In this document: positions 8,139 through 9,523 of the stretch, one piece after another
How positions within the stretch are numbered: position 1 is the stretch's first letter
Layout: each line of letters begins with the position of its first letter
DNA from: a virus
Lineage: Duplodnaviria; Heunggongvirae; Uroviricota; Caudoviricetes
Reading direction: 5' to 3' (one strand)
DNA: 25,804 nt
IMG/VR virus record: IMGVR_UViG_2897352509_000001
Notes under the pieces: generated by a model
Database searches by the model: none
The model's input: the letters and a program-made list of their open reading frames with translations, nothing else
What the model was told of the DNA's origin: nothing
Translations under genes and position numbers: made by a program

Positions 8139-8693
8139 ATGCTTATTGGCTATGTACGCGTATCAACAAATGACCAGAACACCGATCTACAACGTAATGC
8201 GTTGAACTGTGTAGGATGTGAACTGATTTTTGAAGACAAGATAAGCGGTACGAAGTCCGAAAGGCCCGGACTGAAAAAACTGCTCAGGACATTATCGGCA
8301 GGTGACACACTGGTTGTCTGGAAGCTGGATCGGCTGGGGCGTAGTATGCGGCATCTGGTCATTCTGGTTGAGGAGTTGCGCGAACGTGGCGTTAATTTTC
8401 GTAGTCTGACGGATTCAATTGATACCAGTACCCCAATGGGGCGTTTTTTCTTTCATATGATGGGTGCCCTGGCTGAAATGGAACGAGAACTGATTGTTGA
8501 ACGAACAAAAGCTGGACTGGACGCTGCTCGCGCACAGGGACGAATTGGTGGACGTCGTCCCAAACTTACACCAGAACAATGGGCGCAGGCCGGGCGATTA
8601 ATTGCATCAGGCGTTCCTCGCCAGAAGGTGGCGATCATCTATGATGTTGGTGTATCGACACTGTATAAGAAGTTTCCGGTCGGAGATAAATGA
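8139..8693 (+). CDS. pin: Serine DNA invertase (Pin/Gin/Hin family)
   Basis: From ATG 8139: [22 protein letters not shown]... with the catalytic serine motif and a C-terminal HTH; about 184 aa, the usual size for this family. The listed ORF 8103..8693 is an upstream extension. Confidence 0.9.
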
Positions 8694-9523
8694 AACCGTA
8701 GCATGTCGTATGCAAAATCGTGCGCGGTTGGCTGGCCAGCTTCTGATAGTGCGAATATTGGTGAGTAACGAACTGGAGACATAGCTCCTTTTTTTCTTAA
8801 TTCATCTGGTATTTTTTTCCCAAGATAAAGGTTTGCTATTTCAGGTGGGGCTTCTCGACCTTCAAAACCATAGCGAGAGCTTTGTGTTGCCTCAAAGTCA
8901 GGGTCTTCGTCCCAGTATTTCATCGTAGGAAAATGTTCACGCGTTGATTTTAGCCATTTATCAGCAATGAAAACTCCTCGAACGATCCCCCTTACAGTAG
9001 CAAGAATGACTTCTGCTTTACTGGCGCGCGAGACATTAATGCGCCAGCTAAATCGAACCGCATCATAAAGCTCTGAATCTTTTGCACTTCTGTTAACGGA
9101 AATCATTAATGCTTTATGATGAAATGTTATGGTTTCGGGTTGATATGTTGCTATCAACTCTTTGACATGCGCGGCGCCGAATTCATTGCTGCCAGCACCA
9201 TTCATGATATTCGTTAACCCAGGGTAGGCATCAATAAGTGCTGCTTCAACTTCGTACGCCGTCTTTTCATCAGTCATTCCATGTCGATGGATGACATGGA
9301 TAACTTCAAGTCCCGCTAATCTTATTTCTCTGATTTGCTTTAGCTTGTTGCTCAGTAAGTCGTCATCATCAGCCGCTGCCACTTCACCGCGCATATGGGC
9401 AAATACGCGGTTACCTTTGCCTTTCCCTACATAGAAGGTGCTTCCGTCCCTAGGATCAATCAATCGGTATACATACCAGCCAAGGTGTTCAATTACTCCA
9501 GAAGGAAACTCAGTAATATCCAT
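8639..9523 (-). CDS. GIY-YIG nuclease-domain protein with an uncharacterised C-terminal region; prophage-end cargo gene
   Basis: First ATG at 9523 gives [43 protein letters not shown], a classic GIY...YVGKG...R...H motif. About 294 aa. It sits where e14 carries mcrA. Its 3' end overlaps the convergent pin gene by 55 bp. Confidence 0.65.

Follow-up and report, generated by a model that had tools for sequence, protein, structure and literature searches.

A functional selection carried out on fragments of the Escherichia coli pangenome yielded the defence gene PD-T4-3 (Vassallo et al. 2022, PMC9519451), where the searched main text mentions it only as 'a GIY-YIG nuclease'; the name PD-T4-3 is given in PMC12923530. 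In that paper (Liu et al., Nat Commun 2026, published in January 2026), the PD-T4-3 protein of E. coli O157:H7 was renamed CMoRE, and its mechanism and structure were described. Here we analyse a gene at positions 8639 to 9523 of a Caudoviricetes sequence of 25,804 nucleotides (IMG/VR record IMGVR_UViG_2897352509_000001, referred to in full length as the window), which very probably encodes CMoRE. The function of CMoRE is already established and its discovery is published, not new. The window holds a natural variant of it in which the reading frame runs past the usual stop codon, and this variant could tell if the conserved basic tail of the protein must be a free C-terminus.

When expressed from its native promoter, O157 CMoRE reduces plating efficiency about 10^5-fold for T2, T4 and T6, and cultures carrying it grow normally at a multiplicity of infection above 1, indicating a direct, non-abortive defence (PMC12923530). 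In such cells, host reads were unaffected 8 min post infection and T4 reads were depleted (PMC12923530). T4(C), which has unmodified cytosine, escapes CMoRE, whereas the non-glucosylated T4(hmC) is restricted (PMC12923530). Deletion of PD-T4-3 from a native host, the clinical isolate NILS69, sensitised it to Tevenvirinae (PMC12409345). A Capnocytophaga homologue with 48% identity is also modification-dependent and cuts Mu DNA as well, and its catalytic mutants are dead (PMC12366544).

The biochemistry and structure have been described in comparable detail (all from PMC12923530). Purified CMoRE binds and cuts solely DNA containing 5-hydroxymethylcytosine (5hmC) or its glucosylated form (5ghmC). 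It needs two modified sites and cuts at CN11/N9G, which produces 3' overhangs of 2 nt; a cleavage-site logo is given as well. At the N-terminus lies a GIY-YIG nuclease domain that has one additional tyrosine (Y17, Y19 and Y31) and whose active site is shielded by a 15-residue acidic loop. When the DDDD of this loop is mutated to AAAA (4A), the enzyme becomes toxic and cleaves ordinary DNA. The protein assembles into tetramers, and both assembly and defence are abolished in the V92S/L96S mutant. In complexes with 5hm-dCTP, binding was seen in the C-terminal domain near Y127, and neither 5hmC DNA nor 5hm-dCTP activated the cleavage of unmodified DNA in trans. Types II to IV of the family bear an additional domain at one terminus.

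In the window, an open reading frame (ORF) lies on the minus strand at 8639 to 9523, starting with an ATG at 9523 and encoding 294 amino acids (aa) plus a stop; an in-frame TTG upstream, at 9574, would yield a protein of 311 aa (17 more residues). A preliminary description of the sequence had proposed this ORF, a GIY-YIG motif near its N-terminus, a following stretch of about 200 unassignable residues, and convergence on pin with an overlap of the 3' end of that gene. The ORF is real, and the motif was found at aa 17-43, where the Pfam model PF22945 (LEM-3-like GIY-YIG domain) recognises it above its curated cut-off (E=4.5e-14; 53.1 bits, the cut-off being 27). With PF01541, the generic model for GIY-YIG domains, this protein scored below the cut-off, and no NCBIfam model matched it. 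The 200 residues are present, but they can be assigned, since aa ~128-257 form a defined C-terminal domain and aa 258-294 a read-through tail of 37 residues. The convergence on pin was also borne out: pin (plus strand, 8139 or 8103 to 8693) and the CMoRE frame share 55 nt, from 8639 to 8693. The parts of the gene are as follows.

8639 to 9523, minus strand: CMoRE/PD-T4-3 gene, read-through allele of 294 aa plus stop (ORF list, PADLOC, PHROG, identity to PDB 9U75)
9149 to 9523, minus strand: N-terminal part of the gene, with the GIYxY-YIG motif (aa 15-33) at 9425-9481
9359 to 9370, minus strand: acidic auto-inhibitory loop D52-D55, DDDD (sequence; mutant data in PMC12923530)
8753 to 9142, minus strand: C-terminal modification-sensing domain, aa 128-257, with Y127 just upstream
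8639 to 8752, minus strand: 37-codon read-through tail plus stop, lying antisense to the 3'-terminal 55 nt of pin (Sakai comparison, homologue search, AlphaFold2, protein look-up)

The identification as CMoRE rests on matches along almost the whole protein. The PADLOC profile PDLC04031 for PD-T4-3 matched with E=5.8e-140, aligning aa 1-255 to profile positions 1-254 of 256, and PHROG 5356 matched with E=1.3e-141. Both 9U75 and 9U7U were found in profile and phmmer searches of the PDB: the chains 9U75 and 9U8D, of the E. coli O157:H7 protein, are identical to the window protein over residues 1-255, and 9U7U and 9U7Z are ~85% identical to it. DNA searches placed the locus in the thrW-adjacent, lambda-like cryptic prophage Sp1 of the O157:H7 type, with 98.2% identity between window positions 8000-10400 and Sp1 of E. 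coli O157:H7 Sakai. From 8761 to at least 9800 the two sequences are base-for-base identical, including the 277 bp upstream of the CMoRE start codon. The Sakai orthologue, ECs_0285, has 257 aa and bears the RefSeq name 'LEM-3-like GIY-YIG domain-containing protein'. The O157:H7 gene (ECs_0285; 9U75, 9U8D) and that of the window share the locus in Sp1 beside pinE, the motif, the acidic loop, the sensor and the upstream region, and they differ in that the window has N256I, loss of the stop, 37 additional residues, the 55-nt overlap with pin, and another pin allele.

The residues that define CMoRE are conserved in the window protein. Y17, Y19, Y31, D52-55, R80, V92, L96 and Y127 are all present at their published positions, and the arrangement W-Y17-V-Y19-R...F-Y31-V-G is that of a GIYxY-YIG nuclease. 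The acidic loop lies between alpha2 and alpha3, as D52-D55, and an acidic stretch occurs here in 109 of 120 close representatives. When 32 homologues with identities as low as 51% are aligned, 57 columns are invariant; all of these lie at or before Y253 and all are intact in the window protein. The invariant positions include Y17, Y19, Y31, R39, E93 and N105, and from this invariance we infer that R39 and E93 may form the catalytic pair. The C-terminal sensing domain with Y127 is present, and the C-terminal region that the preliminary description had left undefined is this modification sensor.

The gene forms a single-component system. Between pin and a serU tRNA fragment there is no partner gene or methyltransferase ORF, and no other ORF of at least 40 aa stands in an operon arrangement with it, the flanks being the convergent pin on one side and the serU fragment with non-coding DNA on the other. 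A nuclease joined to a reader of modified bases, without a methyltransferase, is the architecture of a type IV enzyme, and modification dependence is known from the literature. The earlier inference of a type IV-like restriction or anti-phage nuclease, carried as a moron analogous to McrA, is supported by published experiments on a protein identical in residues 1-255. Within the family, type I proteins end a few residues after a ...P-x-(K/R)-Y sequence; the window protein runs 41 residues past Y253, and this deviation is due to the read-through tail and not to an added domain.

On this basis, the window enzyme would work in the way shown experimentally for the protein identical in residues 1-255. 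It would assemble as a tetramer, a dimer of dimers. Its C-terminal domain would bind 5-hydroxymethyl- or glucosyl-hydroxymethyl-cytosine, two modified sites ~21 bp apart being needed, and the GIYxY-YIG nuclease would cleave between them (CN11/N9G) to give 2-nt 3' overhangs. The DDDD loop (aa 52-55) over the active site would repel unmodified or 5-methylcytosine (5mC) DNA. Through this selective loop together with the sensing of modification, the DNA of T-even phages would be degraded and the host chromosome spared.

The GIY-YIG type II restriction enzymes Eco29kI and Hpy188I, as well as T4 EndoII, recognise unmodified sequence, the type II enzymes among them being paired with a methyltransferase; CMoRE differs from these in its dependence on modification, its additional Tyr (GIYxY-YIG) and its inserted acidic lid. 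In the PvuRts1I/AbaSI family of 5hmC/5ghmC-dependent type IV enzymes, the nuclease is Vsr/PD-(D/E)XK-like and the reader SRA-like, while CMoRE combines GIY-YIG with another reader and has no sequence relationship to them. The family shares the substrate class of CMoRE and cuts at a fixed distance between two modified cytosines ~20-22 bp apart, with 2-nt 3' overhangs (PMC12923530).

The window allele differs from all canonical ones at its 3' end, and the difference coincides with a change in the neighbouring pin sequence. Relative to Sakai, divergent patches cover pin (8130-8522) and its 3' flank (8594-8759), with 21 substitutions across 8130-8522. Pin and its flank are 97.0% identical to pinE and its flank in E. 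coli EH10-18-47. Over 8715-8760 the window matches the sequence 3' of pinE in EH10-18-47 and in three further genomes with 100% identity; there, a DUF6602 gene comes next. A five-way alignment showed that the window is of the EH10 type up to 8760 and of the O157 type from 8761. The two features concerned are:

8139 to 8693, plus strand: pin, a pinE-type serine DNA invertase gene, in an allele unlike that of O157 Sp1 (RefSeq annotation of orthologous loci)
8715 to 8760, no strand assigned: 3' flank of the alternative pin allele, up to the recombination junction 8760/8761 (identity to the EH10-18-47 flank; five-way alignment)

In canonical CMoRE loci (Sakai and strain 0H23), the last two codons and the stop of the gene reside in pin-flank sequence. 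An exchange of the pin module for another pin allele would have placed the junction at 8760/8761, so that the CMoRE stop would be lost, N256 replaced by I, and the frame extended by 37 codons antisense into pin. ECs_0285 ends 57 bp before pin in Sakai and hence does not overlap it; the overlap is peculiar to the window and is a secondary accident of its allele. A homopolymer sequencing error was considered as the cause of the frame change and was rejected, since the 46 bp in question match a naturally occurring alternative pin flank with 100% identity. We read the 294-aa allele as a private and probably recent recombinant. The junction was found in no complete E. coli genome; over window positions 8660-8800 the best matches have 87.7-88.4% identity at full coverage.

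It is likely that the 294-aa enzyme remains active, because neither the 255 preceding residues nor the family-invariant positions are altered and AlphaFold2 predicts a disordered tail (pLDDT ~30-38). Several observations weigh against a functional defence gene in the window. The exact 294-aa and 311-aa proteins are absent from a collection of ~15 billion proteins, and neither the GTDB species representatives nor the JGI metagenomes contain a 35-mer that spans the junction; the private allele may be a recent and possibly deleterious accident. Out of 113 close relatives, 106 end 1-7 residues after Y253, suggesting that selection favours the short C-terminus. Transcriptional or translational interference could arise from the 55-nt convergent overlap with pin. 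A consensus scan of 8500-10400 detected no canonical sigma-70 promoter or terminator on the CMoRE strand, the scan as a whole giving fewer sites than shuffled sequence; by eye, a weak TTGTGA-17 nt-TAATAT can be seen ~30 nt upstream of the ATG, on which we place no reliance. Finally, the evidence for 5hmC/5ghmC cleavage and for protection from T-even phages comes from the O157 protein and is carried over to the 294-aa allele through the identity of aa 1-255.

These points bear on the possibility that the allele is crippled, that is, that the unstructured 37-aa tail destabilises the protein, blocks the tetramer or hinders DNA binding, leaving a decaying remnant that gives no defence. Besides the private nature of the protein and the junction, it would be in line with this that no homologue of the tail aligned among 6,413 family members, that the conserved basic C-terminal motif, GK(K/R)xPxxxRKxGAxxPx(K/R)Y, normally has so few residues after it, and that the prophage is heavily degraded, its int and O/P genes being pseudogenes and an insertion sequence (IS) lying at 1393-2707. 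However, residues 1-255 are identical to those of the fully active crystallised enzyme, and the change falls beyond the last invariant residue. Tails are also tolerated elsewhere in the family: 7 of the 113 close representatives have 17-76 aa after the conserved Tyr, and some members have extra C-terminal domains. We therefore consider loss of function to be a minority possibility, though one of some weight, and continue to regard the 294-aa protein as a probably active CMoRE.

Readings that assign the gene to another class of nuclease fare far worse; their resemblance to it is weak and at the level of domains, and context and published experiments contradict them, so we have rejected them. 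The least credible takes it for a GIY-YIG homing endonuclease, a selfish gene that cuts the empty allele. The sole signal of this kind was a weak match to phrog_314, against a best full-length match to PD-T4-3. Neither an intron or intein nor a free-standing homing context is present, the gene being prophage cargo beside pin, and a DNA-binding domain of the I-TevI type is lacking; published cleavage follows base modification and not a long specific target. It is also very improbable that the gene encodes a DNA-repair or structure-specific nuclease akin to LEM-3/ANKLE1, UvrC or Slx1, as the Pfam and RefSeq names might suggest. That similarity is limited to a catalytic core of ~85 residues, the gene is prophage cargo of patchy distribution, and deletion in the native host and heterologous expression both show phage defence by an enzyme that is inactive on unmodified DNA. 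An abortive-infection toxin, degrading host and phage DNA alike once triggered, is suggested by the acidic-loop 4A mutant, whose toxic cleavage of ordinary DNA reveals a latent capacity. This is hardly more plausible, since growth is normal at a multiplicity of infection above 1, host reads are spared 8 min after infection as T4 reads are depleted, and neither 5hmC DNA nor 5hm-dCTP activates the enzyme in trans.

The crystallographers report no structural homologue of the sensor domain (PMC12923530). Our comparison with PUA-like folds, which gave modest scores, is suggestive of a different picture, in which the 5hmC sensor may be a highly diverged PUA-like (ASCH/EVE/YTH) barrel rather than a distinct fold. 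Searches with the sensor domain alone, against Pfam (E up to 10) and by profile against the PDB, gave no PUA, ASCH, EVE or YTH signal and nothing outside the family. If the domain is PUA-like, the family-invariant W160, W190, F198 and F220, together with H136 and Y153, could form a pocket for a flipped base, and the true site of recognition on duplex DNA would then differ from the edge site that free 5hm-dCTP occupies. PUA-like readers (ASCH, EVE, YTH) are used in VcaM4I and in archaeal McrB N-domains. Confirmation of such a fold would place CMoRE with the many type IV enzymes that reuse readers of the EVE/ASCH/YTH type and would guide mutation for altered specificity, which matters for the use of CMoRE as a 5hmC-mapping reagent that has been proposed. 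In some family members (P0043, 369 aa, and P0056, 305 aa) the C-terminal sensor domain is repeated in tandem, in full or in part, past the normal end.

The position of the gene relative to pin is shared with the E. coli K-12 prophage e14. The module next to pin in the window is:

5858 to 8112, no strand assigned: tail-fibre and tail-fibre-assembly cassettes beside pin, an invertible-segment module of the e14/Mu/P1 type (ORFs; Sakai ECs_0280-0283, tfaE, yfdK, yfdL)

In K-12 e14 the gene order is identical, the tail-fibre cassettes and pinE being followed by mcrA and attR, and the preliminary description was right in placing the gene in the mcrA slot. Like CMoRE, McrA of K-12 e14 is a single-gene type IV modification-dependent enzyme in the slot after pinE, but mcrA is co-directional with pinE and the CMoRE gene is convergent with pin. 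McrA is an HNH nuclease that targets 5mC or 5hmC in sequence context; CMoRE, with its GIY-YIG domain, targets 5hmC and 5ghmC. No HNH Pfam match was found in the window protein, and BLASTP against K-12 McrA revealed no similarity, the best alignment (E=0.48) covering 16 residues inside the read-through tail. The relationship of McrA and CMoRE is one of position and function class only. At 5858-8693, pin stands beside tail-fibre and tail-fibre-assembly cassettes of opposite orientation, as in e14. The Pin-type recombinases PinQ and PinR, inverting cryptic-prophage DNA, are reported to block T2 adsorption (PMC12529663; bioRxiv 10.1101/2025.03.28.646004), and the pin/tail-fibre module at 5858-8693 may itself add to the defence against T-even phages.

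The slot after pinE is variable among E. coli prophages. It holds CMoRE in Sakai Sp1 and in strain 0H23, and a DUF6602 gene in EH10-18-47 and USMARC-49610, while an O6:H16 strain has Avs2 at one pinE copy and CMoRE beside a second pinE. In strains N32 (L006) and R6 (L007), CMoRE follows a pin remnant or comes straight after the tail-fibre assembly gene. In agreement with the slot argument of the preliminary description, McrA, CMoRE, Avs2 or a DUF6602 gene stands after pinE in different E. coli prophages. This points to the post-pinE position as a defence-cargo hotspot, with a sharp boundary ~65 bp past the pin stop; our literature search found no paper that describes it as such. The window illustrates how exchange of modules where pin meets the cargo in e14-like prophages reshuffles defence genes and sometimes damages them. 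A combined proposal, that the sensor is a diverged PUA-like barrel and also that the slot boundary falls inside the last codons of CMoRE, so that exchange of pin rewrites its C-terminus, is one that we put forward tentatively and at somewhat less than even chances.

Two further observations concern this slot. The defence genes after pinE, namely Avs2, the DUF6602 gene, McrA and CMoRE, differ across the loci L008 (NZ_CP024232.1), L002, L009 and L003. In the ssrA-adjacent prophages of N32 and R6, CMoRE adjoins a pair of genes for a cytosine methyltransferase and a type II endonuclease, so that a modification-dependent system lies beside a modification-blocked one.

Directly upstream of CMoRE lies the tRNA fragment mentioned above:

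9703 to 9766, plus strand: 3' 62-64 nt of tRNA-Ser (serU), followed by the native downstream flank of serU (BLAST to tRNA-Ser in nearly all E. coli genomes; alignment to BL21 mtfA-serU-yodB)

Fragment and flank together span 9703-9882, and the native serU flank amounts to at least 115 bp, as in the mtfA-serU-yodB region of BL21. ARAGORN detected no complete tRNA in the window, and the Rfam matches on the serU fragment were all sub-threshold. Homology to CMoRE-carrying prophages elsewhere stops at ~9720. This suggests that the pin-CMoRE end may once have been part of a serU-integrated element, which would make Sp1 a composite.

The window differs from Sakai only in patches of heavily divergent sequence, which are clustered, and in one IS insertion. 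The patches lie at 618-690, 6108-6206, 7014-7373, 8130-8522, 8594-8759, 11559-11752 and 19703-20144, with up to 79 differences in ~440 bp, a pattern that resembles mosaic gene conversion. Overall identity to the window is no higher than 99.1% in any complete E. coli genome, and for 19650-20200, in the P4-like Sp2 element, the identity to any complete E. coli genome is at best 86%. The insertion relative to Sakai, at 1393-2707 in the early region of Sp1, is ~1.3 kb long and contains ORFs of 296 aa and 108 aa; O157 genomes matching this region annotate copies of IS1203, of the IS3 family. Between the serU fragment and the integrase gene of the P4-like Sp2 element (12005 to 13237) are an AraC-family regulator ORF (10347 to 11090, plus strand) and a partial IS3-family transposase (11132 to 11497, minus strand). 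This regulator and partial transposase (10347-11497) are annotated as Sp1 in Sakai, yet they lie past the boundary marked by the tRNA fragment.
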